Positions 1 through 33,990 of a stretch of 64,000 nucleotides of DNA are shown here, one piece after another. A program made the translations under genes and the position numbers. Below the pieces are notes generated by a model. That model was not told the origin of the DNA and did no database searches. It worked only from the letters and a program-made list of their open reading frames with translations. The DNA is from Squalus acanthias (lineage: Eukaryota): positions 106,704,001 to 106,768,000 of the forward strand of contig CM059431.1 of assembly GCA_030390025.1 (NCBI GenBank), in the 5' to 3' direction. Position 1 is the first letter of the stretch; each line of letters opens with the position of its first letter.

Positions 1-59
1 AAACTGAGTTGAATAGACAGCGCTCTTCCAGTAACTTCACCCATGTGTGTTCTTAGTTA

Positions 60-545
60 ACAGCAGCAGGCTACTGGAGCATGGGGTGCATCACGGCACA
101 GCTCTATTTTGCCTTCACCTCATACCAATTATATTTTTGACTGTTTAAGGGTTAATGATTAACATTCAAAGTCAGCAGTTGGATTCCAAATGCTCCTTCC
201 CATTTGTAACCATTTTGTTTCTGTTACTCCCAGTCTGTCTGAGGATTAAACTCTCCCACTTATAACTGCTTTTTTTCCACTTCCCCCAGTCTGTGTGAGG
301 ATTAAAGGTTGTCTTCACCTCACATCCGCACGCATTCACCTTCCAGTAAGAGTGATTGGATAGGCATCAGTCGAGGGAACCCCGATGGATGCTTCGTCTC
401 CTGAATCCAAGGTGCTGAGGTAAATTGTCCTACTCCTACTGTAGTCAGATCAACTAATTCAGCACAGACTTGGGATCGATCCTGGGGTCTTCCCAGCCTA
501 TATGGCCTTAGGCAGAGGGCAGAACAGTTATCAATTGAGCCATTG
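60..545 (-). mobile_element. Old, diverged tRNA-derived SINE-like element, interrupted at ~123-313
   Basis: Minus strand has an A-box-like TGGCTCAATTGA (~531-542) and a B-box-like GGATCGATCCC (472-482) at Pol III spacing. Boundaries are approximate. Confidence 0.4.
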
Positions 546-962
546 TCTCATGGCTATGTATTCTGCTGTCAAATCCACCCATTGTAGAGATATACTATTA
601 GACTACTGACTTTGGGAAAGCCATTACATTTTTGACTGTTTATGGGTTAATAATTAACATTCAAATATGCAGTTGGATTCCAAATGCTGATTCCATTGTT
701 TCCAAGACGCATAAACAATCTGTCGTAATAACTGACTCGTAACAGATTGACAATTTGAAGAAGTTTATTTATAAATATATACATATTCCCAGCTGCTGCA
801 AGCTTGGGATCAAAGCCAACTATTTTGTGCAGTTGAATTGTGTATATTAGATTTTGTTTAAATTGTCTCTGAAAAATTAGTTTAAAAACTGGACAACACT
901 AGGATTGGTTGGCACCATCAATCCCATGGCACTCGGTCACTGACTAAGAGAGGTTCACAGCC

Positions 963-1280
963 TTCGACAGCACCTCCCAAACCCGCGACCTCTACCACCT
1001 AGAAGGACAAGGGCAGCAGGCACTTGGGAACACCACCACCTCCAAGTTACCCTCCAAGACACACATCATCCTGACTTGGAAATATATCGCCATTCCTTCA
1101 TCGTCGCCGGGTCAAAATCCTGGAACTTCCTACCTAACAGCACTGTGGGAGTACCTTCACCACACGGACTGCAGCGGTTCAAGAAGGCGGCTCACCACCA
1201 CCTTCTCAAGGGCAGTTAGGGATGGGCAATAAATGCTGGCCTTGCCAGCGACGTTCACATCTCGTAAATGAATTTTTAAA
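963..1280 (+). mobile_element. 3' end of a CR1-group LINE (same family as 32750-33428)
   Basis: Near-identical to 33110-33425 (cagcacctcccaaacccgc...ctagaaggacaagggcagcagg...gggatgggcaat), which follows RT C-terminal coding sequence. Confidence 0.85.
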
Positions 1281-1612
1281 AACATAGAATGATACAGCAT
1301 AGAAGGAGGCCATTCGGCCCATCGTGTCTGTGCCGGTTCATTGAAAGAGCGATCCAATTAGTTCTACTCTCCCGCTCTTTCCCGGTAGCTCTGCAAATTT
1401 CTCCTTTTCAAGTATGTATCCAATACCATCTTGAAAATTACCATTGAATCTGCTTCCACTGCCCTTTCAGGCAGTGTGTTCCCGATCACAAAAACTCGCT
1501 TCGTGAAAAAAATTCTCCTCATCTGCACTGGATTTTTTTTTGCCAATTACCTTAAATCGGTTACTGGTCCCTTGGTTACTGACCCCCCTGCCGGAGAAAA
1601 CAGTTTCTCCGA
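1281..1612 (-). mobile_element. CR1 LINE 3' fragment
   Basis: Translates to a CR1 ORF2 C-terminus (RRIFFTKRV..GNTLPERAVEADS..FK..LDTYLK), followed by the CR1-type 3' end (catagaat...gaaggaggccattcggccc). Confidence 0.85.
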
Positions 1613-2130
1613 TTACCATTGCTAATAAACACGCATCCTATTAGTCTCAAACTTTGGTAATAAACACTGAAGGAATATTTAAGCAGTTACAATGACTGGT
1701 CAACACAAAAGAATGAAAAGTATTGTGTTATAATGAATGCAAATGGAATACAGCAGTTTGCCTTCCAGCATTGAACTGTCAGCTGAACTTAAAGAAAGAA
1801 ACTCACCTTCAAATGTAAAAATGTAAAAAATGTATTAACATGTGTTAGATAATAGTAAAACGTTCAATGATCCCCAGTCTAGTAAAAGGTTGTCGTGTTA
1901 ATGTGATCTATATTTGATGACATGTTAACTATAGCTATTATATTGATGGTAGAACAAGGAGAGCTTTCAGGCCCAACTTCAATGATGTCCCAAATCAAGC
2001 GCTTTGGGTTCTAAGCACATGCACAAAATAAACAAAAGCAAAATACGGTGGATACTGGAAACCTGAAATAAGAACAAAAAATGCTGTAAACACTCAGCGG
2101 GTCCGGCAGCATCTGTGGAGAGAGAAACAG

Positions 2131-2167
2131 AGTTAACGTTTCAGGTCGATGGCCCTTCGTCAGAACT
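2131..2167 (-). ncRNA. Minimal type-I hammerhead ribozyme motif in the PLE terminus
   Basis: Minus strand reads AGUU-CUGACGA-agggccaucgaccu-GAAA-CG-UU-AACU: conserved core boxes, stem I AGUU/AACU and a palindromic ACGU mini stem III. Confidence 0.7.
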
Positions 2168-2533
2168 GGAAAAAGTTAGAGATGTAACAGCTTTTAAGCA
2201 AATACAGAGGCAGGGAAAGGAGGGTGGGGACGAAAGAACAAAAGGGAAGGTCTGTGATAGGGTGGAAGGCAGGAGAGATTAAATGACAAAATGGATGATG
2301 GTGCGAGGCAGAAGGAGATGGTAATGGGACAAGTAAAGAAACAAAAGATGGGTCTAGAGGAGGTGTAAATGGAATAGAAGAATCATCAACAGCTGCCATC
2401 CGAAAAAATGGGGGCTGAGGTTATGATCTGAAATTGTTGAACTTGATGTTGAGTCCGGAAGGCTGTAGAGTGCCTAATCAAAAGATGAGGTGCTGTTCCT
2501 TGAGCTTACGTTGAGCTTCATTAGAACAGTGTA

Positions 2534-2787
2534 TCATAGAATCATAGAAATTTATGGCACAGAAGGAGGCCATTCAGCCCATCGTGTCTGTGCCAGCCAA
2601 AAAAGAGCCACCCAACCTAATCCCACTTTCCAGCTCTTGGTCCGTAGCCCTGTAGGTTAAGGCACTTCAAGTGCATATCCAAGTACTTTTTAAATGCGAT
2701 GAGGGTTTCTGCATCTACCACCCTTTTAGGCAGTGAGTTCCAGATCCCCACCACCCTCTGGGTGAAAGAAATTCTCCTCAGCTCTCC
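2534..2787 (-). mobile_element. CR1 LINE 3' fragment inserted in the PLE
   Basis: Peptide RRISFTQRVVGIWNSLPKRVVDAETLIAFKKYLDMHLK with a (catagaat)n tail. PLE sequence resumes in register on both sides. Confidence 0.9.
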
Positions 2788-2909
2788 GAGGAGGCAGAGG
2801 ACAGAGAGGTCAGAGTGAGAGTGGAGCAAAGAATTAAAGTGACAGGCAACCGGAAGCTCGGAGTCACGCTTGTGGACTGAACGGAGGTGTTCCGCAAAGT
2901 AGTCACTCT

Positions 2910-4623
2910 GGCCAGAATTTTGCGAGGGTCAGCGGGCACAATTGGTGGTGGGTCGGGTGAGAAAGTGTTTTTTTTTCACAGCGGGTCGGGATTCCACTGT
3001 GAACCAGCCACCACGCGCCTTTCCCAATGTCGGGTCTGTCAGCACTGAGCAGACCCGACACACAGCGGCAGGGGACCCAATTCAGATAATTAGTGGCTTG
3101 TTTAGAGCCACTTAAGAATGATTTTCAGCTTTCCTTTTGCATTTGACAGCTCATCCATGGGGTCCACACTGGTCGTGGACCATGTCTCTGAAGCTGAGGC
3201 AGGAGTTCAGTGGCCATTGAATCAGCTGTTGAGTTGACAGCTTCAAATGTAATGTAAAAGCTCCCACCTTACAGAGATATCTTCCCTCAGCCACAAACTG
3301 TTGCTCAGTCCATTTCCAGCACAGATTCACCATGCTGCAAGTCTTTACATAAGTCTCCATCCAGTCTCACCTCATCACCTCTCTCACCATTGACAGATCG
3401 CTTCTGTCATCTCTACTTCACCTGCCATCTATTCCATCAGCATGGGTGTCCTTTATACTCTCTCACCTTGGTCCTCAGAATCCCACCACCATCAGCCCCA
3501 ACACCAGCAGCACCAGGCACACCTGCAGCACCAACAACAATACCAAACTTCTGCGCAATCAACTGATGCTGCACAGGACACAGGGCATCAACACCCGACC
3601 ACATTGATGCCTGGGAGGCCAGGGATGGCCTCACCATGGCCAGATTTACTTCACTTGATGCTGTACATCCTGGCTGCCACATGATGCACCAGGTTGGCAC
3701 CACCCCACACCAACACCCTAAAGCATCCCTACAATGCCCAAGCAATTCCTTTCACACTCATCACCATTGCGGGGGGTACCGTTATGTCTCACCATTCACT
3801 GCAACTCAATAAGCCACTTCCAAAGGTGCACATGAATCTATCCAAGAATGCAAAGTGTTGAAAATAAAGGTTTCAATGCTTGACAGCATATTAACAGAAA
3901 CTTTACATGAGCATTGCGTAAAACATCCAAGTGCCTACCCTTGTGTGTTGTTAGTTGGTATGATTGCACTAGGATGAGGGTGAGTGTGTGGGGTGGCTAA
4001 TGAGATGGGGATGTGATAATGTAGATAGAGAGGGATGGGTGGAGGTGCAAGGCAAGTTGGTGTGAGTAAGGATGTGCAGGAGTAGGGTAGGGAAGGCAGA
4101 GTGATGGGGATCTGCTGAGAGGCACAGCAGGATGAGGTTCAGTGTGGCTTTGTACTAACGTTTCGTGATCGTCTGAGATCATTGAAAGGTTTGTGGCACT
4201 GCACCCAGATTCTCCTGACCACATCCCTGCTTGTGCCCTCCTCTGCAATGTGCAACCAGGCTGTGTTAATCTCCTGGGGAGGTCTCTTCCACCCATATGT
4301 GCTGTGGAGGGAGTCTTGGGAGAACCTGGGTGCAGCCCTGTGCCTTTGTGCAGTCATTGTCAGTGTTTGCAGCACCTCAATGCGGTAGAACACTGACAGC
4401 ACAAATGTCAAAATAAATTTGGACATGGTCCCTTTAAGGAAACCGGCTTTAAGGACGTCACCAGACCCGCTTCCTCTAATTGGCCGGGAAACATGCTGGG
4501 CGGGCTTAACAAGCCCAATCTCGGGAAATTCACTTCACAGAGTGGGATGGAGCCAGCAGCAGGGTCGGGACACACCACCAACATTGCTCGCCATGGATCC
4601 ACCGAGGTGAACAAAATCGCAGC
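2910..4623. mobile_element. PIF/Harbinger-type DNA transposon, deleted and decayed, inserted in the PLE
   Basis: Splits the PLE sequence gtcac|ccaatctgc. Has degenerate inverted ends (ggccagaattttg / caaaatcgcagc), a subterminal inverted match (2933-2952 vs 4571-4590) and an internal Myb/SANT-like remnant. Confidence 0.7.
4160..4360 (-). pseudogene. Harbinger Myb/SANT-like (trihelix) DNA-binding protein remnant
   Basis: RAAPRFS...KRPP...AWLHIAEEGTSRDVVRRIWVQCHKPFNDLRRS fits the W..IA.....R...QC.K.F.DL pattern of Harbinger Myb-like (NAIF1-type) proteins. Confidence 0.7.
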
Positions 4624-6449
4624 TCCAATCTGCATTGGTCCCCCCAGTGTAGAGGAGACCGCATCGTGAGCAGCGAATACAGTATACTAAATTGAAAGAA
4701 GTACAAGTAAATTGCGGTTTCACCTGGAAGGAGTGTTTGGGGCCCTGATAGTGGGAAGGGAGGAGGTAAAAGGGTAGGTGTTGCATCTCCTGCACTTGCA
4801 TGGGAAGGTGCCGGGCGAAGGGGAAGGGGTGTTGGAGGTGATTGAGGAGTGGACCAGGGTGTCGTGGAGGGAGCGGTCCCTTCGGAATGCTGAAAGAGGA
4901 GGTGAGGGGAAGATTTGTTTGGTGGTGGGATCACACTGGAGGTGGCGGAATGGCGGAGGATGATCCTTCGAATGTGGAGGCTGTTGGGGTGAATGGTGAG
5001 GACAAGGGGAACCCTATTGTGGTTCTGGGAGGGAGAGGAAAGGGTGAGGGCTGAAGTGCGGGAAATGGAACGGAAACGGTCGAGGGCCCTGTCAACCACG
5101 GTGGAGGGGAATCCTCGGTTGAGAAAAAGGAAGACATATTGGAAACACTGGTATGGAACGTGGCATTGTCAGAACAGATGCGACGCAGATGGAGAAACTG
5201 GGAGAATGGAACAGAGTCTGTACAAGAAGCCGCGTGGGAGGAAGTGTAGTCAAGGTAGCTGTGGGAGTTAGTGGGCTTATAGTGGATGTTGGTCGATAGC
5301 CTATTCCCAGAAATGGAGACAGAGAAGTCGAGGAAGGGAAGGAATGAGTCAGCAGTGGACCATGTGAAGGTGAGGGAAGGGTAGAAATTAGAAGCAAAGT
5401 GAATAAAATTTTCCAGTTCAGGGCGAGAGCAGGAAAGCACACCGAAAAAGAGGTGAGGGAGGCGACCTGAGTAGGACTGGACCAAAGAATGTTCCACATA
5501 TTGCACAAAAAAGGCAGGAATAGCTAGGACCCATGCAGCTTCCTATAGCAACACCTTTTATTTGGAGGAAGTGAGCGGAGTTAAAGGAGAAGTTGTTCAA
5601 TGTGAGAACAAATTCAGCCAGGCGGAGGAGGGTGGTGGTGGATGGGGACTGTTTAGGCCTCTGTTCAAGGAAGAAGTGGAGTGCGCTCAGGCCATCCTGT
5701 TGGGGGATGGAGGTGTAGAGGGATTGGGCATCTATGGTGTAAAGGAAATGGTTAGGGCCAGGAAACTGGAAACTGTTGAAGTGGCGGACGGCGTCAGTAG
5801 AGTCGCGGATGTAGCTGGGAAAACACTGGACAAGGGGAGAACAAAATAGAGTTGAGATAGGAAGAAATCAGTTCCATGGGGCAAGAACAGGCTGAAACGA
5901 TGGGTCTATCAGGGCAGTCCTGTTTGTGGATCTTGGGGAGGAGATAGAAATTGGAGTACGGGGTTGGGGGACTATGAGGTTGGCGGCCATGGAGGGAAGA
6001 TCTCCAGAGGAGATGAGGTCAGTGAAAGTCTTGGAAACGGTGGCTTGATGTTTGGTCATGGGTTCATGGTCCAGGGGGAGGTAGGAGGAGGTGTCGGAGA
6101 GTTGGCGTTCAGCCTCCACACGGTAGAGGTCAGTTCGCCAAACAACAACAGCGCCACCCTTGCCAGCAGGTTTAATGACAGTGTTAGGGTTGGATCTGAG
6201 AGAACGGAGTGCTGCAAGTTCAGAAGGAGGTAGGTTAGAGTCAGTGAGGGGAGCAGAGAAATTGAGATGGCCGATGTCATGCCGACAGTTCCCAATGAAA
6301 CGATCTAGAGAGGGTAAGAGGCCAGAGGGAGGGGCCCAGGTGGAACGAGAATTCTGAAGGTGAGACAGAACTCCTGGCCAAAGAAGTGGGCACGGAGGCG
6401 AAAGCGACGAAAGAAGAGCTCAGCGTCGTGCCGAGCTCAAAATTCATCG

Positions 6450-6588
6450 AGGTGTTCCCCGTAATTCTATTTTATGTGCGCAGCCCCTTTAAAGGGCTGC
6501 GTGGCCCATTTACAGTTTTGCGCAAAAATTTAACATTGAAAAAGCTGCTCCTGGGCTGCGCGGGACCGGCAGAGAGGTGGGAATGTTG
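6450..6588. mobile_element. ~140-bp MITE-like insertion in the PLE ORF
   Basis: Interrupts the PLE peptide FIPLRPH|NEF.ARHDAELF. Ends gtgttccc...gggaatgttg are loosely inverted, and there is an internal palindrome gcagcccctttaaagggctgc (6480-6500). Confidence 0.55.
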
Positions 6589-7337
6589 GTGGGGGCGTAA
6601 GGGGATGAAGCTGGGGCCTTTGCTGAGGACTGATCGCTCGGGGTCAGAGGGGGGAAGGTCAGAGGGGAATAGTGAAAACACCACCAGGGGGGAGACTGGA
6701 AGAAGGGATGGGGTCAGAGGAAACTGAAGGGGTAGAAGGTCCCGGAGCGGGGTTGGTTAGGGGTTGATTTTAGCTCAGGTCCTGCTGGGGAGAAGAAGAA
6801 GCCACGAAAGGTAAGATTTACACTTTCCTTCACGGGGGTGCAGGAGGAGCAAGATTGCTTCTTCAGACCCTGCACAAGGACATTGTAGACCTCCCTTTGC
6901 TCGCGGAATCCCTGAACTTTTTCTGCCACCATTCCCCTTAGTGATACATTACCTATTTGTATAAGTGGCTCTGTCTGAAATTCAAGCACTTTTACTAAAT
7001 TGAAAAACACAGCCATGCACTATGTTTTCATGTGACTTCATATATTAAAGTCTGTTCAGCTTCCTGAAAAGGCTTTGAGCTATCAGTAAATTGTGTACAT
7101 CTTTTTAGATTTAGCGAAGCATTTTAATACAGGGTGACCACATTTTCTAAACCGAATCCCGTGACACACGAGGTGGGGGTGCAGCAAAGTAGCCAGGATG
7201 GAAAATATAGGTTGCAAAAGTTTTTAGCAGCCTTTGTTTTAACAGTTGCACATATACACCACGAATGCAAAACAAACGTGCATATAATTATTGATGTGAC
7301 GCCACAGTATTGAAGCACATTCAGACACCCGAGCCCA

Positions 7338-8140
7338 CCCCAGTGACTGAGGTCACACCTGACCCCTCCCCCCCAGTGACTGAGGTCACACCTGACCCCT
7401 CCCCCCCAGTGACTGAGGTCACACCTGATCCCTCCCCCCCAGTGACTGAAATCACACCTGATCCCTCCCCCCCAGTGACTGAGCTCACACCTGACCCCTC
7501 CCCCCCGTGACTGAGGTCACACCTGACCCCTCCCACCCAGTGACTGAGGTCACACCTGACCCCTCCCCCCCAGTGACTGAGGTCACACCTGACCCCGCCC
7601 CAACTGTGAGTGTGGTCACACCTGACCCCTCCCCCCCAGTGACTGAGGTCACACCTGACCCCTCCCCCCCAGTGACTGATGTCACACCTGATCCCTCCCC
7701 CCCCAGTGATTGAGGTCACACCTGACCCCTCCCCCACAGTGACTGAGGTCACACCTGACCCCTCCACCCCAGTGACTGAGGTCACAGCTGACCCCTCCCC
7801 CCCAGTGACTGAGGTCACACCTGACCTCTCCCCCCCAGTGACTGAGGTCACACCTGACCCCTCCCCCCCAGTGACTGAGGTCACACCTGACCCCTCCCAC
7901 CCCAACAGTGACTGAGGTCACACCTGACCACTCCCCAAGTGGGACTGAGGTCACACCTGACCCCTCCCCCCCCAGTGACTGAGGTCACACCTGACCCCTC
8001 CCCCCCAGTGACTGAGGTCACACCTGACCCCTCCCCCCCAGTGACTGAGGTCACACCTGACCACTCCCCAAGTGGGACTGAGGTCACACCTGACCCCTCC
8101 CCCCCAGTGACTGAGGTCACACTTCACCCCCCCACCCACA
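7338..8140. repeat. 33-bp minisatellite (cagtgactgaggtcacacctgacccctcccccc), ~24 copies
   Basis: Directly visible tandem array with a period of 33 (7341, 7374, ...). Confidence 0.97.
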
Positions 8141-8410
8141 GTGGCTAGGATTGGCCAGCTCTCGCCCCCCCTTCCCCCGGTGACCGGGTCCTCCCTAGCA
8201 GCCTCTCACTCACCCGCTCCGGTTGCCGTGTTCACAGGCACTTCCAACACCGACAATCCAGCAGCATGAGCCGGGCCGGAATCTCAAAAACAGCAACCGG
8301 CACGTGCACAGAAAGAGCGCCCAGTCGCACATGCGCGGTGAGTCACTCTGGCCATCGTACAAGTTGTTGTTTAATTTAGTCTTAGAGACACAAACTGACA
8401 GCTGAGGGGT

Positions 8411-11400
8411 GGGGGGGACAATCACTGCCCGGGGGGACACTCACTGCCCAGGGGTACACTCACTGCCCAGGGGTACACTCACTGCCCAGGGGTACACTCA
8501 CTGCCCGGGGGGTACACTCACTGCCCAGGGGTACACTCACTGCCCAGGGGTACACTCACTGCCCGGGGGGTACACTCACTGTCCAGGGGGTACAGTCACT
8601 GCCCAGGGGGTACACTCACTGCCAGGGGGTACACTCACTGCCCAGGGGTACACTCACTGCCCAGGGGTACACTCACTGCCCAGGGGTACACTCACTGCCC
8701 GGGGGGTACACTCACTGCCCAGGGGTACACTCACTGCCCAGGGGTACACTCACTGCCCAGGGGTACACTCACTGCCCGGGGGGTACACTCACTGCCCAGG
8801 GGTACACTCACTGCCCGGGGGGACACTCACTGCCCAGTGGGGTACACTCACTTCCTGGGGGGTACACTCACTGCCCGGGGGTACACTCACTGCCCGGGGG
8901 GTACACTCACTGCCCGGGGGTACACTCACTGCCCGGGGGGTACACTAACTGCCCAGGGGGTATACTCACTGTCCGGGGGTACACTCACTGCCCAGGGGGT
9001 ACACTCACTGTCTGGGGGTACACTCACTGCCCAGGGGTACACTCACTGCCCAGGGGGTACAGTCACTGCCAGGGGGTACACTCACTGCCCAGGGGGTACA
9101 CTCACTGTCCAGGGGGTACACTCACTGCCAGGGGGTACACTCACTGCCCAGGAGTACACTCACTGCCAGGGGGTACACTCACTGCCCAGGGGTACACTCA
9201 CTGCCATGGGGGTACACTCACTGTCCAGGGGGTACAGTCACTGCCCAGGGGGTACACTCACTGCCAGGGGGTACACTCACTGCCCAGGGGGTACAGTCAC
9301 TGCCCAGGGGGTACAATCACTGCCCGGGGGGACACTCACTGCCCAGGGGGTACACTCACTGCCCAGGGGTACACTCACTGCCCAGGGGGTACAGTCACTG
9401 CCAGGGGGTACACTCACTGCCCAGGGGGTACAGTCACTGCCCAGGGGGTACACTCACTGCCAGGGGGTACACTCACTGCCCAGGAGTACACTCACTGCCA
9501 GGGGGTACACTCACTGCCCAGGGGTACACTCACTGCCCAGGGGGTACACTCACTGTCCAGGGGGTACAGTCACTGCCCAGGGGGTACACTCACTGCCAGG
9601 GGGTACACTCACTGCCCAGGGGGTACAGTCACTGCCCAGGGGGTACACTCACTGCCCAGGGGGTACAGTCACTGCCCAGGGGGTACAATCACTGCCCGGG
9701 GGGACACTCACTGCCCAGGGGGTACACTCACTGCCAGGGGGTACACTCACTGCCCAGGGGGTACACTCACTGCCCAGGAGTACACTCACTGCCCAGGGGT
9801 ACACTCACTGTCCGGGGGGTACGCTCACTGCCCAGTGGGGTACACTCACTGCCCGGGGGTACACTCACTGCCATGGGGGTACACTCACTGCCCAGGGGGT
9901 ACACTCACTGCCCGGGGGTACACTCACTGCCCAGGGGGTACACTCACTGTCCAGGGGGTACAGTCACTGCCCAGGGGGTACACTCACTGCCAGGGGGTAC
10001 ACTCACTGCCCAGGGGTACACTCACTGCCCAGGGGGTACACTCACTGCCCAGGAGTACACTCACTGCCCGGGGGTACACTCACTGCCCAGGGGGTACACT
10101 CACTGCCCAGGAGTACACTCACTGTCCGGGGGGTACACTCACTGCCCAGGGGTACACTCACTGCCCGGGGGTACACTCACTGCCCGGGGGGTACACTCAC
10201 TGCCCAGGGGTACACTCACTGCCCAGGGGGTACACTCACTGCCCGGGGGTACACTCACTGCCATGGGGGTACACTCACTGCCCAGGGGTACACTCACTGC
10301 CCAGGGGTACACTCACTGCCCAGGGGGTATACTCACTGTCCGGGGGTACACTAACTGTCCGGGGGTACACTCACTGCCCAGGGGTACACTCACTGCCCAG
10401 TGGGTACACTCACTGCCATGGGGGTACACTCACTGCCCAGGGGGTATACTCACTGTCCGGGGGTACACTAACTGTCCGGGGGTACACTCACTGCCCAGGG
10501 GTACACTCACTGCCCGGGGGTACACTCACTGCCCAGGGGTACACTCACTGCCCAGGTGTACACTCACTGCCCAGTGGGGTACACTCACTGCCCAGGGGTA
10601 CACTCACTGCCCAGGGGGTACACTCACTGCCCGGGGGTACACTCACTGCCCAGGGGTACACTCACTGCCCAGGGGTACACTCACTGCCCAGTGGGGTACA
10701 CTCACTGCCCAGGGGTACACTCACTGCCCAGTGGGGTACACTCACTGCCCAGTGGGGTACACTCACTGCCCAGGGGGTACACTCACTGTCCAGGGGTACA
10801 CTCACTGCCCAGTGGGGTACACTCACTGCCCAGGGGGTACACTCACTGTCCGGGGGTACACTAACTGTCCGGGGGTACACTCACTGCCCAGGGGTACACT
10901 CACTGCCCAGGGGGTACACTCACTGCCCAGGGGTACACTCACTGCCCAGTGGGGTACACTCACTGCCCAGGGGGTACACTCACTGTCCGGGGGTACACTA
11001 ACTGTCCGGGGGTACACTCACTGCCATGGGGGTACACTCACTGCCCAGTGGGGTACACTCACTGCCATGGGGGTACACTCACTGCCATGGGGGTACACTC
11101 ACTGCCCAGGGGTACACTCACTGCCCAGTGGGGTACACTCACTGCCATGGGGGTACACTCACTGCCCAGGGGTACACTCACTGCCCAGTGGGGTACACTC
11201 ACTGCCATGGGGGTACACTCACTGCCCAGTGGGGTACACTCACTGCCATGGGGGTACACTCACTGCCATGGGGGTACACTCACTGCCATGGGGGTACACT
11301 CACTGCCCAGGGGTACACTCACTGCCCAGGGGTACATTCACTGTCCAGGGGTACACTCACTGCCCAGGGGTACACTCACTGTCCGGGGGGTACACTCACT

Positions 11401-13119
11401 GCCCAGGGGTACACTCACTGCCCGGGGGTACACTCACTGCCCAGGGGTACACTCACTGCCCAGGGGGTACACTCACTGCCCAGGGGTACACTCACTGCCC
11501 AGGGGTACACTCACTGCCCAGTGGGGTACACTCACTGCCCAGGGGTACACTCACTGCCCAGTGGGGTACACTCACTGCCCAGGGGTACACTCACTGCCCA
11601 GTGGGGTACACTCACTGCCCAGGGGGTACACTCACTGTCCGGGGGTACACTAACTGTCCGGGGGTACACTCACTGCCCAGGGGTACACTCACTGCCCGGG
11701 GGTACACTCACTGCCCAGGGGTACACTCACTGCCCAGTGGGGTACACTCACTGCCATGGGGGTACACTCACTGCCCAGGGGTACACTCACTGCCCAGTGG
11801 GGTACACTCACTGCCATGGGGGTACACTCACTGCCCAGTGGGGTACACTCACTGCCATGGGGGTACACTCACTGCCATGGGGGTACACTCACTGCCATGG
11901 GGGTACACTCACTGCCCAGGGGTACACTCACTGCCCAGGGGTACATTCACTGTCCAGGGGTACACTCACTGCCCAGGGGTACACTCACTGCCCAGGGGTA
12001 CACTCACTGCCCAGGGGGTACACTCACTGCCCGGGGGTACACTCACTGCCCAGGGGTACACTCACTGCCCAGGGGTACACTCACTGCCCAGGGGTACACT
12101 CACTGCCCAGGGGTACACTCACTGCCCAGGGGGTACACTCACTGCCCAGGGGTACACTCATTGCCCAGGGGGTACACTCATTGCCCAGGGGGTACACTGA
12201 TTGCCCAGGGGGACACTCACTGCCCAGGGGGTACACTCACTGCCCAGGGGTACACTCAAAGCCCGGGGGGTACACTCATTGCCCAGTGGGTATACTCACT
12301 GTCCGGGGGGTACACTCATTGCCCAGGGGGTATACTCACTGCCCAGGGGTACACTCATTGTCCGGGGGGTACACTCACTGCCCGGGGGTACACTCACTGC
12401 CCAGGAGGTACACTCACTGCCCAGGGGGTACACTCACTGCCCAGGGGTACACTCATTGTCCGGGGGGTACACTCACTGCCCAGGAGTACACTCACTGCCC
12501 AGGGGATACACTCACTGCCCTGGAGGTACACTCACTGCCCGGGGGTACACTCACTGCCCAGGGGGTACACTCACTGCCCGGGGGGTACACTCACTGCCCG
12601 GGGGGTACACTCACTGCCCGGGGGGGTACACTCACTGCCCGGGGGTACACTCACTGTCCGGGGGTACACTCACTGTCCGGGGGGTACACTCACTGCCCGG
12701 GGGGTACACTCACTGCCCGGGGGGTACACTCACTGCCCGGGGGGGTACACTCACTGCCCGGGGGTACACTCACTGTCCGGGGGTACACTCACTGTCCGGG
12801 GGGTACACCCAGTGCCCGGGGGTACTCTCACTGCCCAGGGGTACACTCACTGGCCGGGGGTACACTCACTGCCCAGGGGTACACTCACTGTCCGGGGGGT
12901 ACACCCAGTGCCCAGGGGGTTACACTCACTGTCCGGGGGGTACACCCAGTGCCCAGGGGGTTACACTCACTTCATGGGGGTACACTCATGCCTGGGGGTA
13001 CACTCACTGTCCAGGGGTACACTCACTGCCCTGGGGTACACTCACTGCCCAGGGGTACACTCACTGCCTCGGGGGTACACTCACTGCCCAGGGGTACACT
13101 CACTGCCCAGGGGTACACT
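8411..13119. repeat. 19-21-bp minisatellite (ggggtacactcactgccca), ~240 copies
   Basis: Directly visible tandem array with a variable G-run. Variant units (ccatggggg, ccagtgggg, ctaactgtcc) occur in clusters. Confidence 0.98.
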
Positions 13120-13744
13120 TCGGGGAAGATTTTTGTAAACCGGGGACACCTCCGGGGACGATTTTTGCCCGGGGACACAGTAGCTCATTCGAGGACTGTC
13201 CCCGGAAAAAGGGGACGGATGGTCACCCTGCTTTAATACTTTTTTTTTTGATTGATGACTGTAATATCTTACCTACCACGAGACCCCCCCCCCCCCACAA
13301 CACCCCCCCCCGAAACCCACTTCCCCACACTTACCTGAGTGGCTGCCTATTTTCTGGAGGCTGGGAGCCTCTTCTCGCCCATTCCGGGCATGGAGTGGAC
13401 CAGTGGCTTCTTACTGAGGCCTGGGAGTTAAACAACACGGGTCTGATCTCCTTTGCAACCATCCATCCGCCCAAAACCTGCCCAGAGTTAAAATCCCGAG
13501 CAATGGCCTTATTTAACTGAAGGCACCAGAAATCAATCATTTTATGTAATTTTCTCAGACAGCTGCCTAATATCCCTTTCACAGTAGCAAATGGAAGTTG
13601 GATTTCTATTGAAATAGAGCTTTCCTTTAACACAATCAATGACGTTAATCTTAACCAAGAACTCTGATAATAAATCAATATAAACTCCATGCATGTTGTT
13701 GTATGGTTATATTTACTGAGCTAATGTGAGTGAGGCAGACAATC

Positions 13745-18178: not shown

Positions 18179-18925
18179 GGCCCAGATATTCCGATCCCTA
18201 CGGGTGAGTACGCGCTGTGTACCCACCCGTAGGGACATCGGAAATGCCGGTTTCAGGCATGCACAGCGCATGCGCTGAAAACAGGCATTTCCGATCTGTT
18301 AAGAATGCTCTTGACAGATCCTCCGGCTGCCCTGCAGAAGGGCCTCTGTGGGCGGATAGTTCCGCTTTTTGGAGACCCTCCGCCCGCAGAAAACACTTAC
18401 AATTCTTACGCCTGATAAAAGCAGGTGTAAGGCCTGCTCTTACCAGGATAAGAGTTGAAAAAAGTAAAACAAAAAAAATTCCCACTGATTTATCATTTAA
18501 AAATACTTTAAAAAAAGGTAAGTTTATTTTTAGCCTCGTAAAAAACTTCAATTATTTTTTTCAAAAATTACATTTTTGTTTAAAATACTTCATTTATTGT
18601 AATTTCAAGTCATTTTAAAAATGTGATTTTTTTAAAAAATGTATTTAAAGTTTTACTATGTTTTTGGGGGTGATCTCCATTCATATATTTGACAGGTCTT
18701 CCTGTCAAGTGAATGAAGGGAGATTCCCTTCTGTGATTGGCTCCCCATGGCCCACGGGATCCCAGGGACGCTGCAAACTACCTGCGCCTCTGGGATACGT
18801 GGGCCCTACGCACTTGCAGTTTGGAGAGGCCCAGGAGCGGAAGCGTGTGCGTCCCGAGAGCCCTCAGGTAAAGGCATAGATTTTCCAGATCGCAGACCTC
18901 CGCCCGCGATCAGAAAATACGGGCC
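18179..18925. mobile_element. Harbinger-type non-autonomous element (MITE), 747 bp
   Basis: TIRs ggcccagatattccgatc / gatcagaaaatacgggcc (14/18), 3-bp TSD ATT at 18176-18178 and 18926-18928, and internal palindromes. Confidence 0.8.
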
Positions 18926-19171
18926 ATTGAATTTAAATTGCCATTCTATGCGTTAGTATTTATATTCTACTGCTCAACTTTAGGGACTTCTATTCCATGT
19001 TCTTATTCAGCACCTGGGAAATGTGATTGTCAGATCCCAAGCATGTAGAATCACTTGGATATTTTATTCGGAAGTGTCAGTTAACAGATCAGAGGAGACA
19101 GTAAGTACACTTTTGCAACCCCATTACACTCATGGTAAAAAATAAGATTTTTTTTTTAAATAATAAGATGT

Positions 19172-21221: not shown

Positions 21222-21650
21222 CACAACAACAACAACTTGTATTTATATAGCGCCTTTAACGTAGTAAAACATCCCAAGGCGCTTCACAGGAGTATTATAA
21301 GACAAAAAAATTTGACACTGAGCCACAAAGGGAGAAATTAGGGCAGATGACTAAAAACTTGGTCAAAGAGGTAGGTTTTAATGAGCATCTTAAAGGAGGA
21401 GAGAGAGGCGGAGAGGTTTAGGGAGGGAATTCCAGAGCTTAGGGCCTAGGCAACAGAAGGCACGGCCACCAATGGTTGAGCAATTATAATCAAGGCTGCT
21501 CAAGAGGGCAGAATTAGAGGAGCGCAGATATCTCGGGAGGAGGGGGGGGGGTGTTGTGGGACTGGAGGAGATTACAGAGATAGGGAGGGGCGAGGCCATG
21601 GAGGGATTTGAAACCATTGATGAGAATTTTGAAATCGAGGTGTTGCTTAT
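21222..21650 (-). mobile_element. L2 LINE 3' end
   Basis: Peptide HLDFKILI..FKSLHGLAPPYLCNLL..LRSS..TIGGRAFCCLGPKLWNSLP with a (ttg)n tail. Confidence 0.9.
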
Positions 21651-23364: not shown

Positions 23365-23610
23365 ATAAGAACATAAGAACATAAGAACATAAGAAATAGG
23401 AGCAGGAGTAGGCCAATCGGCCCCTCGAGCCTGCTCCGCCATTCAATAAGATCATGGCTGATCTGATCCTAACCGCCAATCTACTATCTATCACAGAACC
23501 ATCTCCTGCATCTAACAGAATTGCACACACGAAATAGGAGCAGAATCAGGCTACACAGTCCCTGGGCCCGCTCCACTACCCACAGGGCCATGAACGATCC
23601 GAACCTAGAC

Positions 23611-26562
23611 TCATGTCCAAATTCCTGCCCGCTCCCCGTAACCCTTAATGCCCTTTACTTCTAGGAAACTGTCTATTTCTGTTTTAAATTTAATTAATGT
23701 TGTAGCTTCTACAGCTTTTTGTGGCAGCATATTCCATGGACCTACCACCCTCTGAGTGAAGTAGTTCCTCCTCATCTCAGTTTTGAAAGAGCAGCCCCTT
23801 ATTCTAAGACTATGTCCCCTAGTTCTCGTCTCACCCGTCATCGGGAACATCCTCCCCGCATCCACCCGATCCAACCCCTTCACAATCTTATATGTTTCAA
23901 TAAGATCGCCTCTCATTCTTCTGAACTCCAATGAGTAGAGTCCCAATCTACCCAACCTCTCCTCATATGACCACCCCCTCATCCCCGGGATTAACCGAGT
24001 GAACCTTTTTTGCACTGCCTCGAGAGCAAGGATGTCTTTCCTTAAGTAAGGACACCAAAACTGTATGCAGTATTCCAGGTGCGGTCTCACCAATACCTTG
24101 TACAACTGAAGCAATACCTCCCTATTTTTATATTCTATCCCCCTAGCAATGAAAGCCAACATTCCATTTGCCTTCTTAATCACTTGCTGCACCTGCATAC
24201 TAACCTTTTGAGTTTCGTGCACCAGGACCCCCAGATCCCTTTGCACTTCAGTACTCTCCAGTTTCTTGCCATTAAGATAATAAATTGCTCTAGGATTTTT
24301 CCTGCCAAAGTGCATCACCTCACACTTTCCAGTGTTGTATTCCATCTGCCAAATCTCTGCCCACTTACTTAGCCTGTCTATGTCCCCTTGCAGGTTTTTT
24401 ATGTCCTCCTCACTCACTACTTTCCCTCCCATCTTTGTATCATCTGCAAATTTTGATATGTTACACTTGGTCCTTTCCTCCAAATCGTTAATATAGATTG
24501 TGAAGAGTTGGGGACCCAGCACTGACCCCTGTGGAACACCACTAGTTACTGATTGCCAGTCTGAGAATGAACCATTTATCCCAACTCTTTGCTTTCTGTT
24601 AGATAGCCAATCCTCTATCCATGCCAGAATATTACCCCCAATCCCGTGATTTTTTACCTTAAGCAATAATCTTTTGTGTGGCACCTTGTCAAATGCCTTT
24701 TGGAAGTCTAAATACACTACGTCCACTGGTTCCCCTTTATCCACTCTATATGTTACTTCCTCAAAGAACTCCAGCAAATTTGTCAAACATGACTTCCCCT
24801 TCGTAAAACCATGCTGACTTTGTCCTATTAAATTATGATTATCCAAATGTCCTGTTACTGTTTCCTTAATAATGGACTCCAAAATTTTACCTACCACAGA
24901 TGTTAGGCTAACCGGTCTATAGTTACCAGCCTTCTGTCTACTGCCCTTTTTAAATAAGGGTGTTACATTAGCAGTTTTCCAGTCTGCCGGGACCTTAGCG
25001 GAATCCAGGGAGTTTTGAAAAATTATTACCAATGCATCTACAATCTCTACCGCCACTTCCTTCAAGACTCTAGGATGTAAGCCATCAGGTCCAGGTGATT
25101 TATCCGCCTTGAGTCCCATTATTTTACCGAGTACCACTTCCTTAGTGATTTTGATCGTGTTTAGCTCCTCTCCCCCTATAGCCCCCTGTTTGTCCAGTGT
25201 TGGGATATTCTTAGTGTCCTCTACTGTAAAGACTGATACAAAATATTCATTCAGTGTTTTTGCCATCTCCATATTTCCCACCATTAATTTCCCGGTCTCA
25301 TCCTCTAAGGGACCAACATTTACTTTAGCCACCCTTTTTCTTTTTATATAACTATAAAAACTCTTACTATCTGTTTTTATATTTTTTGCTAATTTACTTT
25401 CATAATCTATCTTCCCTTTCTTAATCAATCTTTTTGTTATTTTTTGCTGCCTTTTAAAGTTTTCCCAATCCTCTGTCCTCCCATTAGATTTCGCTACCTT
25501 ATATGCCCTTGTTTTTAGTCGAATACTATCCTTAATTTCTTTACTTAGCCACGGATGACTGTCCTTTCTTTTACACCCTTTTCTTTTCAGTGGAATATAT
25601 TTTTTTTGGAAGTTGTAAAATAACTCCTTGAATGTACACCACTGATCATGTGTCGTCTTACCCTTTAATCTATTTTCCCAATCCACTCTACTCAATTCCG
25701 CTCGCATACCTTCATAGTCTCCTTTATTCAAGCTTAGCACGCTTGTTTGAGATCCAACCTTCTCACCCTCTAATTGAATATGGAATTCAACCATGTTATG
25801 GTCACTCATTCCAAGGGGATCCTTTACTAGGACATTTTTAATTAATCCTGTCTCGTTACACAGGACCAGATCTAAGGTTGCTTGCCCCCTGGTCGGTTCA
25901 GTTACATACTGCTCAAGAAACCCATCCCTAATACACTCAATGAACTCATCCTCAAGGCAGCCCTGCCCCATTTGATTTGTCCAATTAATGTGATAGTTAA
26001 AATCCCCCATAATTATAGATGTTCCCTTATTACATGCCTCAACTATTTCCTGATTGATACTCCGTCCAATAGAGTTGCAACTGTTCGGAGGCCTATAGAC
26101 TACGCCCACTAATGTTTTTTTCCCCTTATTATTCCTTATCTCCACCCAAACTGTTTCATTATCATGATTTTTTGACCCAATATCATTACTCTGTATTACA
26201 GTGATTCCTTCCTTTATTAACATAGCCACCCCACCTCCCCTTCCTTCCTGCCTGTCCTTCCTGATCGTTAAATAACCTGGTATGTTTAATTCCCAGGCAT
26301 TGTCACCCTGCAGCCATGTTTCTGTAATGGCCACAATATCATAACCATATGTAGTTATTTGTGCCATTAACTCGTCTATTTTGTTACGAATGCTACGTGC
26401 ATTCAGATAGAGAACTTTCAAATATGCTTTGTGGCACTTAGTTCCTGCTTTTTCACTTTTTACCAGTTTACCTTTTACTCCACACACTCTGTCCCTTCCT
26501 GCCACGCTCTGATTTGTGATTCCCCTACTGCTACCTATGTCTATGACCCTCTCTGTTGTCAT
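23611..26562 (-). CDS. CR1 ORF2: apurinic endonuclease + reverse transcriptase (983 aa)
   Basis: APE motifs YLNARS, AITETWL, VYRPP, MGDFN, LDLVL, SDH. RT motifs KSPGPDG, NYRPVSLTS, QHGF, YLDFQKAFDKV, GVPQGSVLGP, FADD. No stops or frameshifts. Confidence 0.97.
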   Translation of the reverse strand: MTTERVIDIGSSRGITNQSVAGRDRVCGVKGKLVKSEKAGTKCHKAYLKVLYLNARSIRNKIDELMAQITTYGYDIVAITETWLQGDNAWELNIPGYLTIRKDRQEGRGGGVAMLIKEGITVIQSNDIGSKNHDNETVWVEIRNNKGKKTLVGVVYRPPNSCNSIGRSINQEIVEACNKGTSIIMGDFNYHINWTNQMGQGCLEDEFIECIRDGFLEQYVTEPTRGQATLDLVLCNETGLIKNVLVKDPLGMSDHNMVEFHIQLEGEKVGSQTSVLSLNKGDYEGMRAELSRVDWENRLKGKTTHDQWCTFKELFYNFQKKYIPLKRKGCKRKDSHPWLSKEIKDSIRLKTRAYKVAKSNGRTEDWENFKRQQKITKRLIKKGKIDYESKLAKNIKTDSKSFYSYIKRKRVAKVNVGPLEDETGKLMVGNMEMAKTLNEYFVSVFTVEDTKNIPTLDKQGAIGGEELNTIKITKEVVLGKIMGLKADKSPGPDGLHPRVLKEVAVEIVDALVIIFQNSLDSAKVPADWKTANVTPLFKKGSRQKAGNYRPVSLTSVVGKILESIIKETVTGHLDNHNLIGQSQHGFTKGKSCLTNLLEFFEEVTYRVDKGEPVDVVYLDFQKAFDKVPHKRLLLKVKNHGIGGNILAWIEDWLSNRKQRVGINGSFSDWQSVTSGVPQGSVLGPQLFTIYINDLEERTKCNISKFADDTKMGGKVVSEEDIKNLQGDIDRLSKWAEIWQMEYNTGKCEVMHFGRKNPRAIYYLNGKKLESTEVQRDLGVLVHETQKVSMQVQQVIKKANGMLAFIARGIEYKNREVLLQLYKVLVRPHLEYCIQFWCPYLRKDILALEAVQKRFTRLIPGMRGWSYEERLGRLGLYSLEFRRMRGDLIETYKIVKGLDRVDAGRMFPMTGETRTRGHSLRIRGCSFKTEMRRNYFTQRVVGPWNMLPQKAVEATTLIKFKTEIDSFLEVKGIKGYGERAGIWT

Positions 26563-26600
26563 TTTTATTTTTTGCTCTCTTGAAACCTCCCCCCCACTAA

Positions 26601-27557
26601 TTAGTTTAAAGCCCTCTCCACAGCCCTAGTTATTCGATTCGCCAGGACACTAGTCCCAGCACTGGCCAAGTGAAGTCCGTCCCAACGGAACAGCTCTCTC
26701 CTGCCCCAGTACTGGTGCCAGTGTCCCAAGAAGCAAAACCCATTTTTCCCACACCAGTCTTTGAGCCACGCATTCAACTCCCTGATTTTATTTACCCTAG
26801 CCAAATTTGCTCGTGGCTCAGGTAGTAATCCAGAGATTATTACCCTCGAGGTTCTGCTTTTTAATTTGGCCCCTAGCTGCTCAAACTCCCTCAGCAGAAC
26901 CTCTTTCCTTGTCCTATCTATGTCATTGGTACCAACATGGACCACGACAACTGGATCCTCCCCCTCCCACTCCAAGTTTCTCTCCAGCCCAGAGGAGATG
27001 TCCTTAACCCTGGCACCGGGCAGGCAACACAGCCTTCGGGACTCTCGCTCTTGGCTGCAAAGAACCCTATCTATCCCCCTAATGATACTATCCCCTACCA
27101 CTACAACATTTCTTTTTACTCCCCCCACTTGAATGGCCCCCCTTACCACGGTGCTGTGGCCAGGTTGCTCATCCTCCCTGCAGTCCCCGCTCCTATCCAC
27201 ACAGGGAGTAAGAGCCTCGAACCTGTTGGACAAGAGCAAGGGCTGCGGCTCCTCCAACACTACCTCCTGGATCCCTGTACCTGCCTCACTCGTAGTCACA
27301 CCTTCCTGTCCCTGACCACGGGCTACTTCTGAATTAGTTACTCTAATTGGTGTGACTACCTCCTGAAACACGGAGTCCAGGTAACTCTCCCCCTCCCTGA
27401 TGTGTCGCAGTGTTTGAAGCTCGGACTCCAGCTCATCAACACGGAGCCGGAGTTCCTCGAGCAGCCAACACTTACTGCAAATGTGTTCACCGTGAACATC
27501 AATGGTGTCCACCAGCTCCCACATATTGCAGCAGTAACACATCACCTGCTCTCCCAT
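26601..27557 (-). CDS. CR1 ORF1: zinc-finger-like N-terminus, coiled coil and SGNH/GDSL esterase domain (318 aa)
   Basis: CYCC...CSKC motif, leucine heptads, and esterase blocks VVVVGDSIIRG, LPGA, VHVGTND and DGLHL. Confidence 0.93.
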   Translation of the reverse strand: MGEQVMCYCCNMWELVDTIDVHGEHICSKCWLLEELRLRVDELESELQTLRHIREGESYLDSVFQEVVTPIRVTNSEVARGQGQEGVTTSEAGTGIQEVVLEEPQPLLLSNRFEALTPCVDRSGDCREDEQPGHSTVVRGAIQVGGVKRNVVVVGDSIIRGIDRVLCSQERESRRLCCLPGARVKDISSGLERNLEWEGEDPVVVVHVGTNDIDRTRKEVLLREFEQLGAKLKSRTSRVIISGLLPEPRANLARVNKIRELNAWLKDWCGKNGFCFLGHWHQYWGRRELFRWDGLHLASAGTSVLANRITRAVERALN

Positions 27558-28009
27558 TCTATGTAATTAATTAAAAATGTATTATTTATCCTTCAGTTAA
27601 TTTATGCCAGCAGTCTCTGCTACACCACAGATACCCGAGAAACAATAAAATTGAAGTTTTGTATAAAAAAAAAGAGAAATACTCACCAACCAATCACTTA
27701 CCTGCTTTCTGGTGACGTCACACTTCGATTATTTTTTACCTCTCTCCTGCTCTCGGCTTGGTGAAAGCCTACCTGGTCGCTGCCGCCTTTTACCGCCGCC
27801 GCCTCGCCGCTGTTGCTCCACCCAGGTCCGCCGCCTCTATAAATGTAGCAGCAACCCCAGTATAGATTCAGTTGATTCCACCAAGTTTGACCAAAGACAA
27901 TGGTCTTGTGTTAACTCCAATCTAACACCAGGAGCTACAACAATACTCTAGTATCCAATGCAGGCCTTGATGTCACGTAACCATGTTGCATATCGACGCT
28001 GTGCTGTAC

Positions 28010-30565: not shown

Positions 30566-31458
30566 GGGGGAAAAATTCAGTTGGTTGCGCCTCCCGTTAG
30601 CACCTTAAGAGGGCGCTAATGGGGCGCAAAGCATCTAGCGCCCAGGCGCGGCGAAGTTTGCGCCGCTTGCGAAATTAACTAGACATTTTGCGGCGGCGCT
30701 AAACACTACCGCCACGATCTCCTGCGCCGGCAGATCATGACGTCACTCGAGTGCGCAACGCCCCGGTATCGCCCCGGAGCGGATATTGAGTGGCGCCCCC
30801 TGCCTTACCGCCTGACGCTAGCAACGACAGGTTGAGGGGAGCGTTCTGCAGTCGTGAAGGGAAAGGGGGAGCGCTATTTAAAGGTGACCGCTTCCTGCCT
30901 TTTATTGTTGGTGCCATTTTTGAACTATGCATTCTGAGAGAGAGAGGGAGAGACTTCTGGAGAGATTCAACGTTGTGTGAAGGAGTTTTGGGTACTGAGC
31001 AGCACTTTGCAGGTTCATTTTGATTTGCCATTCCTTGTATCGATTTAGCAGAGACTGTGGGGGCTGCACTCTCAGATCTTGGCCTGGTACTCTCCATTGT
31101 TCTTTCCAGCACATTTGATGTGCAGGTCTCTCCAGGCCGAGATTCAAGGCTGCAATGAGCAGGATGTGGATGGAAAGCAAGATTAACCATCCCCTTTAAG
31201 AACTGGCCCGTGCCATTGTGTGTGTGTTCCATTGCTGACTGACATTACATGAGCTTCGCCAGCGCTCTGAGGTAGCGCCTCGCTCCTCGGCCTTTGCGCC
31301 TTAAGACAGGTGTGAAGCACCTGATATAGCGCTGCAATCACCTCCAGGGGCGATAAAAGTCAAGTTTGCAGTCGGTGGCGATAATTAGCGACAGGCGCTA
31401 ATCTTTGCGCCCGGCCGATAATTGCGCCCCAAATGGGGTGATACTGAATTTCTCCCCC
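30566..31458. mobile_element. Harbinger-type non-autonomous element, 893 bp, inserted in a CR1 tail
   Basis: TIRs gggggaaaaattcagt / actgaatttctccccc (15/16), TSD ATA at 30563-30565 and 31459-31461, and GCGCC-rich subterminal regions. Confidence 0.88.
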
Positions 31459-32277
31459 ATAGAGTCACAACAGCACAGAAGGAGGCCATTTGGCCCATCG
31501 AGTCTGTGCCGGCTCTCTGAAGAGCAATCCAGTCAGTCCCATTCCCCCAGCTCTATCCCCGTAGCCCTTCAAGTTTATTTCCCTCAAGTGCCTATCCAGT
31601 CTGCCCTTGAAAACATTGAGTGTCTCCGCTTCCACCACTTCCGTCAGCAGCGAATTCCACGTCCTCACCACTCGTTGCGTAAAAAAGTTTTTCCTCACGT
31701 CCCCCCTGTATCTCTTGCCCAAAACCTTAAATCTGTGTCCCCTAGTCCTTGTACCATTAACTAGTGGGAACAGCCTTTCCCCGTCTAGCCTATCCAAACC
31801 CGTCATAATCTTGTACACCTCTATCAAATCACCCCACAACCTCCTTTGCTCGAATAAAAACAAATCCAGCTTCTCCGGCCTGTCCTTGTAGCTAAGATCC
31901 CCCATCCCCAGAAGCATTCTGGTAAATCTCCTCTGCACCCTCTCAAGGGCCTTCACATCCTTTCTAAAGTGTGGTGACCAGAACTGGACGCAATACTCCA
32001 TTTATGGCCAAACCAGCCCTTTATAAAATTTCAGCATAACTTCTCTACTTTTGTACTCAATACCTCAATTTATGAAGCCCAAGATCCCATATGCTTTGCT
32101 AACCACTCTCTCAATATGTCCCGCCACCTTCAGGGACCTATGCACATTAACTCCCAGGTCCCTCTGTCCCTGCGCACTCTTTAAAACTGAGCCATTAAGT
32201 GTATATTGCCTCTCCCTGTTCCTTCTGCCAAAATGCATCACCTCACACTTCTCTGTATTAAATTCCATCTGCCACAT
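31459..32277 (-). mobile_element. CR1 LINE 3' portion
   Basis: Peptides WQMEFNTEKCEVMHFG, EYCVQFWSPHFRKDVKALERVQRRFTRM and FFTQRVVRTWNSL. Confidence 0.92.
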
Positions 32278-33428: not shown

Positions 33429-33934
33429 TTTGGGCCTCGGGATCACCCCTCTCAGAAGAACAGGTGCCCCTGTTGCGTGCTGGATGCACGGGCACCCACC
33501 CAATACTGACCCCATCTCCAGGATTGGGAGGGTCAACGTTAGTTGAAAATGGGTGGGTGGAAATCCTACACTGTTGCTCAAACGGAATTCACAGGGTATA
33601 GTATCTGGAAGTTGTAGACGTTCCTATGCAAAGCGAAAGTTTGGAGATTGTGAGTCAGTTTCAATGAAATTTCCAAAGTCTATTGTTTGTGGCTCTTTGA
33701 AGCTTAGGGGCAGTATTTGTTGTTTGAAATATTCTGATTGTCACCCGTGTTGAAAGTGCACTATGGAGTGGCAGGATATAGGACTTTGCTGTCACCATTT
33801 CCCACACAGTCAATTCCTAAACACATCCGGAATGGGTGTTGGGAGAAGTGCCAAGAGAGCCCAGGAATGCCCCCACAGAAAGGTAGGGAAACTCAGCAAC
33901 TGCTTCAACCCAATTATACGCAATCACCTCGGGA

Positions 33935-33990
33935 CAACGAGAACAACTTGCATTTATATAGCACCTTTAATGTAGTAAAGCGTCCCAAGG
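33935..33990 (-). mobile_element. L2 tail fragment abutting the satellite
   Basis: aacaacttgcatttatatagcacctttaatgtagtaaagcgtcccaagg matches 21231-21279. Confidence 0.8.

Follow-up and report, generated by a model that had tools for sequence, protein, structure and literature searches.

Two minisatellites that fill a probable hAT-type element of Squalus acanthias most likely expanded in place

How does a DNA transposon come to consist almost wholly of tandem repeats, and do such repeats travel with its family or arise after insertion? The question is raised by a segment of the Squalus acanthias genome at positions 7130–13230 of a 64,000-nucleotide stretch (NCBI GenBank assembly GCA_030390025.1, contig CM059431.1, 106,704,001 to 106,768,000 of the forward strand), hereafter the window, to which all coordinates refer. 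The segment is 6,101 bp long, is bounded by perfect 11-bp inverted repeats, and contains a 33-bp and a 19-bp minisatellite of 806 and 4,708 bp, which together make up 5,514 bp (90%) and leave 587 bp of other sequence. An earlier note, made from the letters of the window, had described it as a hAT transposon with about 600 bp of unique sequence in total, a figure that agrees with our measurement, and had proposed that it grew by internal tandem expansion. We consider it likely that the segment represents a single copy of a non-coding hAT-type element with a high copy number, and that both minisatellites in it grew at this locus after insertion.

The left terminal inverted repeat (TIR; CAGGGTGACCA, 7130–7140, plus strand) is matched perfectly by the right one (13220–13230, minus strand), and the two form the sole exact pair in the 64-kb window. 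They are flanked by TTTTAATA on the left (7122–7129) and CTTTAATA on the right (13231–13238), an 8-bp target site duplication (TSD) in which 7 of the 8 bases are identical. An alternative register yields a perfect 8-bp repeat (7123–7130 and 13232–13239) at the cost of lopsided ends, and we prefer the symmetric one. Taken by itself, the TIR word is no rarity in the window, with three matches at up to one mismatch against 4.96 expected. Among 90 inverted pairs of at least 11 bp in the non-array DNA, no more than 10 kb apart, this element's pair is the single one flanked by direct repeats that agree at 7/8 or better; 60 first-order Markov simulations produced one TIR pair with a TSD of at least 7/8 overall (0.017 per window). 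The analysis confirms that both arrays lie inside one perfect TIR pair flanked by 8-bp direct repeats, as the earlier note had it. None of the unique parts (left, middle, right) recurs elsewhere in the window. The coding capacity of the element is restricted to repeat-derived frames; the long open reading frames (ORFs) across the 19-bp array were considered as genes and rejected as frame artefacts of the repeat.

Evidence that the element belongs to a family comes from public sequencing runs. A search with positions 6880–7340 (42 words) returned 14 runs from five studies, each with fewer than half of the words; four of them (X1, X2, X6 and X7) were aligned as contigs to 6900–7345 at 80% likeness, the other ten were not used, and all figures on contig ends and variant sites from these four runs refer to what is among the matches listed. 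Across the left TIR, the summed contig depth (not to be equated with copy number) climbs from 17 to 4,931 in X2 and from 7.5 to 5,837 in X6 (290- to 780-fold), from 0.4 to 88 in X1, and only from 2.3 to 8.3 in X7, where a peak of 178 follows later. Directly before 7131, 32 contigs in X2 and 27 in X6 carry mutually dissimilar AT-rich flanks (agreement 0.42 and 0.41, respectively). Such a large number of distinct flanks at a single boundary is as expected of a mobile family, and the left end is a true, high-copy transposon boundary. No contig crossing the left junction straight into the right flank occurs among the matches listed for the four runs. The left flank at 6938–7097 is a different multi-copy repeat in all four of them, and the window copy of that repeat seemingly lacks about 15 bp after 7097 in comparison with other copies.

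A second line of evidence is provided by unrelated elements with the same kind of ends. A degenerate pattern drawn from the right end matched 120 loci in metagenome contigs, in 40 of the 64 parts scanned (40 of the loci having short flanks only); these loci appear to be eukaryote host DNA, as far as we can infer. A degenerate right-end pattern gave no match in viral contigs, and an exact 24-base pattern of the left end gave none in metagenome contigs. Two ends were recognised at 22 of the 120 loci, with a TSD of 8/8 in four cases and 7/8 in two, and when TSD lengths from 4 to 10 were tried on these elements, full matches appeared at 8 bp only. Their partner ends constitute a second, dissimilar end type. 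The left end in the window, which was not used in the scan, fits, in its sequence past the TIR, the profile of 17 such partner ends (p=3e-4, the 17 not being independent of each other), compared with p=0.50 for the scanned-end profile, while the right end shows no fit to the partner profile (p=0.77); that it fits the scanned ends is circular. The two end types are seen together in unrelated two-ended elements, and the two ends in the window very probably belong to one element. The motif GGACA/TGTCC is found at 11.4 per kb inside the unrelated ends versus 1.8 per kb outside. Several of the metagenome loci (L005, L017, L019, L035, L025 and L098) are complete non-coding elements of 116–1,190 bp whose TIRs are of this type and whose TSDs agree at 7/8 to 8/8, and short 13–15-bp tandem arrays carrying the GGACA motif were observed at L019, L046, L052, L067 and L071.

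The hAT element Hermes is described as having short TIRs, duplicating 8 bp of target, and bearing subterminal repeats at ends that are unlike each other (PMC10368747). The element in the window displays an 8-bp TSD, short TIRs and dissimilar ends with short subterminal repeats, and by these sequence features it fits a non-autonomous hAT-type element. It has in common with MITEs (miniature inverted-repeat transposable elements) that it is non-coding and that its left end, the part for which this is seen, has a high copy number; as in MITEs that carry tandem repeats, its arrays lie inside the TIRs. Its size of 6,101 bp, or 587 bp without arrays, is to be set against the small, uniform size of MITEs. 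The proposed assignment to a hAT-type non-autonomous TIR element is thus supported by the sharp, high-copy left boundary, the 8-bp TSDs and the dissimilar end pair in unrelated elements. The narrower label Blackjack, or MER81/MER94 type, which the earlier note gave for the ends and the 8-bp TSDs, is a tentative one based on consensus ends. PMC5753468 counts MER81, MER94 and Blackjack among hAT elements; a usable passage giving this TIR for any of the three did not turn up in the literature searched, including excerpts of PMC9250109.

This copy is unlike the bulk of its family. Positions 7141–7329 (plus strand) are the left end common to the high-copy family according to the contig alignment, and between 7131 and 7329 the window copy departs from the family majority at at least 12 sites (6%) and by indels near 7215 and 7290. 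At 12 of these sites the majority letter accounts for 81–99% of the depth in X2 and 84–98% in X6, and two majority letters would restore a subterminal CCGGGGACAC motif that lies some 30 bp in from the left tip. There follows a degenerate partial 33-bp unit (7322–7342, plus strand), in which many family copies diverge to AT-rich sequence after 7329; at least seven X2 contigs switch there to an AT-rich sequence that is unrelated. In the bin where the 33-bp array starts (7335–7345), the depth is 1.5% of that at 7305–7319 in X2, 6.7% in X6 and zero in X1 and X7, values that an edge effect possibly depresses in this last bin. Most family copies do not enter the 33-bp array at this junction. The depth drop and the divergence after 7329 leave the idea of the earlier note that the family may seed or disperse minisatellites genome-wide unsupported, as regards most family copies at their junction with the 33-bp array. 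Its ancestor of about 0.6 kb is likewise conjectural: the figure is the sum of the non-array parts, and typical family copies diverge after 7329.

These same data bear on whether the segment is one element at all. Left and right ends might instead stem from two adjacent insertions, or from an element and host DNA captured in the spacer, which a deletion has joined and which a TSD flanks by chance. For such a composite speak a duplication that is imperfect, AT-rich and in competition with another register, a left flank that is itself a multi-copy repeat, and a continuation after 7329 unlike that of many family copies. We nevertheless judge a composite to be rather improbable, given that a TIR pair with a TSD arose in only one of the 60 simulations, that complementary, dissimilar end types co-occur in intact unrelated elements, and that both ends here start with the rare C.

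Accepting a single element, we turn to its arrays. The larger one (8412–13119, plus strand) is reported by Tandem Repeats Finder as a 19-bp unit in 240.6 copies and was parsed into 239 units of 19–21 bp in 44 variants. Within it, an exact block of 293 bp is duplicated in the interval 11089–11990 (plus strand), with starts at 11089 and 11698, that is, 609 bp apart. Furthermore, the longest repeated run comprises 14 units, compared with at most 6 in 200 shuffles, the variants cluster by position, and a 10-bp core of the unit is 2% off the consensus. Block duplication, repeated run, clustered variants and the low divergence of the core together argue for stepwise local growth by duplication of units and of blocks, and the growth of the 19-bp array was most likely recent and local. 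Internal tandem expansion, as claimed earlier, is hence supported for this array by the block duplication, the 14-unit run and the clustered variants. Hairpin-driven expansion of the 19-mer was rejected, as it folds worse than shuffles (z=+2.40).

One may ask whether the array is as long as it appears, because many unit variants differ just in the length of a G or C run and the exact 293-bp duplication could be a mis-join. The element would then be real and its array length, especially the block duplications, inflated by assembly error. Random read error, however, does not resemble what is seen here, namely 44 variants, substitutions included, in ordered, position-specific clusters over 4.7 kb, and we hold an inflated assembly to be very improbable indeed.

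As to the origin of the 19-bp unit, the array passes directly into the motif series of the right subterminal region (13118–13219, plus strand). This region has an 18-bp imperfect direct repeat and three CCGGGGAC motifs in array orientation (at 13140, 13152 and 13169) plus one inverted motif (13197–13205); the motif is absent from 1–7129 and 13231–33988 of the window. The units resemble the right subterminal GGGGAC module: the first unit of the array aligns with it at p=0.0045, and six of ten unit variants reach p<0.05. From this resemblance it is plausible that the 19-bp unit derived from the right subterminal module. None of eight comparisons that looked for an origin of the 19-mer in the short interspersed elements (SINEs) of the window, in a 14-mer array further downstream or in the unique parts of the element gave p<0.05.

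The smaller array (7338–8143, plus strand) consists of about 24 units of 33 bp (24.2 copies according to Tandem Repeats Finder, 90% matches). Degenerate partial units stand at both of its edges, as expected for duplication in place. An origin of the 33-mer in the window SINEs, the 14-mer array or the unique parts of the element was rejected (0 of 8 comparisons at p<0.05), as was hairpin-driven expansion, the dimer folding no better than shuffles (z=−1.07). A word of the 33-mer (7351–7361 and its equivalents in each unit) matches the right TIR at 10 of 11 positions with one gap (p=0.009, post hoc); we rejected it as a TIR-like word because the match is post hoc and partly common to the unrelated 14-mer. 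Between the arrays lies a spacer of 268 bp (8144–8411) that is unique in the window, with 59% GC and 16 CpG. This CpG-rich spacer may be what is left of a promoter-like sequence from an autonomous parent, and no convincing terminal inverted repeat of a nested element was detected in it. It contains a 14-bp inverted repeat (8219–8232 and 8287–8300).

The surroundings of the element are themselves rich in tandem repeats, with arrays occupying 54% of the window. At 33989–62965, 21 kb from the element, a 29-kb array of a 14-bp unit starts abruptly inside a SINE (33934–33988, 87% like 21223–21277) and switches orientation at about 34204 and at 61768–61782; none of five candidate inverted pairs gives it TIRs with a TSD. 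In sharks, simple tandem repeats are richer on short chromosomes, and GC is richer at chromosome ends (bioRxiv 2022.10.17.512540). The neighbourhood rather than the transposon is probably what drives array expansion. The window is otherwise a dense retrotransposon nest, whose SINEs and LINEs (long interspersed elements) look like those of cartilaginous fish. An intact LINE at 23365–27566 (minus strand) has an open ORF1 of 321 codons from stop to stop, GDSL esterase-like, and an ORF2 of 1,004 codons with endonuclease and reverse transcriptase; it ends in an 8-bp tandem tail at 23365–23395 and seems to interrupt an older LINE fragment. By eye, GC-rich inserts at 18181–18930 and 30575–31460 resemble non-autonomous DNA elements with inverted ends.

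Since most family copies leave the alignment before the 33-mer, growth by blocks was local, and the 29-kb array grew without TIRs, the arrays most likely expanded locally and are most likely passengers rather than a family trait. We propose the following course of events. By what is established of hAT biology, a short precursor would have been inserted into an AT-rich site of 8 bp by the transposase of an autonomous partner located elsewhere, which recognised its TIRs and its subterminal motifs of GGGGAC type. One module of the right subterminal series, whose resemblance to the array is observed, may then have duplicated to yield the 19-bp unit, and the 33-bp unit may go back to another stretch, rich in C, on the left end's inner edge. 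Slippage and unequal exchange would finally have multiplied units and multi-unit blocks, of which the block duplication is the visible trace, in surroundings where a 29-kb minisatellite lacking transposon ends has grown as well.

Several observations weigh against this account. The family evidence from the runs is confined to the left end. Of the ten unit variants compared with the subterminal region, four align no better than shuffles. With regard to the hAT assignment, 16 of the 22 two-ended unrelated elements have no TSD (15 at 5/8 or less, one without flank), and no hAT Pfam family was found in 150 of the 163 inner ORFs (at least 70 amino acids) of the unrelated loci, which lie on short contigs; two inner ORFs have sub-threshold matches to unrelated families. 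Both TIRs in the window start with C, whereas the base preceding the motif at the 120 loci is T in 110 (C in 4, others in 6); one element with a perfect TSD combines a T tip with a C tip, and C is hence tolerated. At the 12 differing sites, the window copy has seven changes from AT to GC, three from GC to AT and two that are neither, which suggests a minor subfamily more than decay. Because the differences resemble subfamily sites, an age of insertion derived from the 6% divergence to the family majority was rejected and we do not date the event. In addition, three contigs in X2 (four over the ends, minus one at the left) and five in X6 extend past 7345; they may represent this locus, its alleles or a few siblings.

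The last of these points lead to a rival history, in which both minisatellites, as seeds or as short arrays, were already present in a small subfamily whose TIRs start with C and moved along when it transposed, its loci growing independently thereafter as in miDNA4 and DTC84 and in line with the dispersal idea of the earlier note. It would account for the contigs past 7345 and for the non-majority letters, which at the 12 diagnostic sites take 1–19% of the summed depth; a separate master is likewise suggested by the direction in which the sites differ and by the C that begins both ends, and there are precedents in miDNA4, DTC84 and Tetris. We consider this history unlikely, if well worth keeping in mind, as most copies lose the match by about 7329 and the few contigs beyond 7345 could be this locus and its alleles. 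A bolder version, to which we give little credence, would have the subfamily amplify its own putative transposase-binding subterminal module about 240-fold and still transpose, turning a cis signal into a dispersed minisatellite family in a cartilaginous-fish genome; array length might then tune the transposase loading of a copy.

On the preferred reading of local growth, the locus offers a clean single-locus case of minisatellite birth in a DNA transposon, in which ends, TSD and the probable seed motif can still be read. Examples of this kind shed light on the sources of GC-rich tandem repeats in large vertebrate genomes. Their significance would be greater if sibling copies carried arrays, as a putative transposase-binding motif would then be linked to a dispersed minisatellite family.

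That repeats arise inside MITEs and grow to arrays is established for Xenopus, Drosophila, a clam and bacteria. In the MITE miDNA4 of Xenopus tropicalis (Scalvenzi and Pollet 2014), a satellite unit is single or forms an array that varies across copies (PMC12628747, PMC9659126). Like our element it is a vertebrate non-autonomous TIR element in which long arrays grow; however, it belongs to Tc1/mariner and its one repeat is a family trait, whereas here hAT-type ends enclose two unrelated units in one copy. The tandem repeats of Xmix/Xstir, also from Xenopus (Hikosaka and Kawahara 2004), come from the internal sequence of a MITE of another family (PMC12628747, PMC9659126, PMC6947457), and the stem-loop joining of two nearby elements proposed for them is not evident here. 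Internal repeats are noted in the Xenopus element hAT-N16_XT as well (PMC12676858).

In Tetris of Drosophila virilis, with its TIR-220 repeats, end-region repeats expand to kb-size arrays, favoured by the genomic environment (PMC4079207). The present 19-bp array, too, seems to be an end-region repeat grown to kb size. Tetris, a Foldback element, differs in its long TIRs and its unit of 220 bp, ours having short TIRs of 11 bp and, on one side only, a 19-bp unit. The clam Donax trunculus has DTC84, which combines two kinds of repeats, its core repeats numbering up to five, and which shows a duplication of AA (PMC3879986), and BrickBuilt of Porphyromonas gingivalis holds a 23-bp minisatellite in a MITE (PMC4596501); both are multi-copy together with their repeats. 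As here, the MITE serves as a cassette around tandem repeats; in DTC84 and BrickBuilt many copies carry them, while our arrays are known from one copy. No comparable element in a shark was found in the literature searched, mostly at the level of titles and abstracts. The non-autonomous hAT elements MER81/MER94 and Blackjack, and Hermes as a mechanistic model, resemble the element in short TIRs, an 8-bp TSD and ends that are unlike each other and bear short subterminal repeats; Hermes differs in that its transposase binds AAG(T/C) (PMC10368747), and the role of GGGGAC as a binding site here is putative. Particular to the present element are the filling to 90% by arrays, the presence of two unrelated units and the resemblance of one unit to the element's own subterminal motif.

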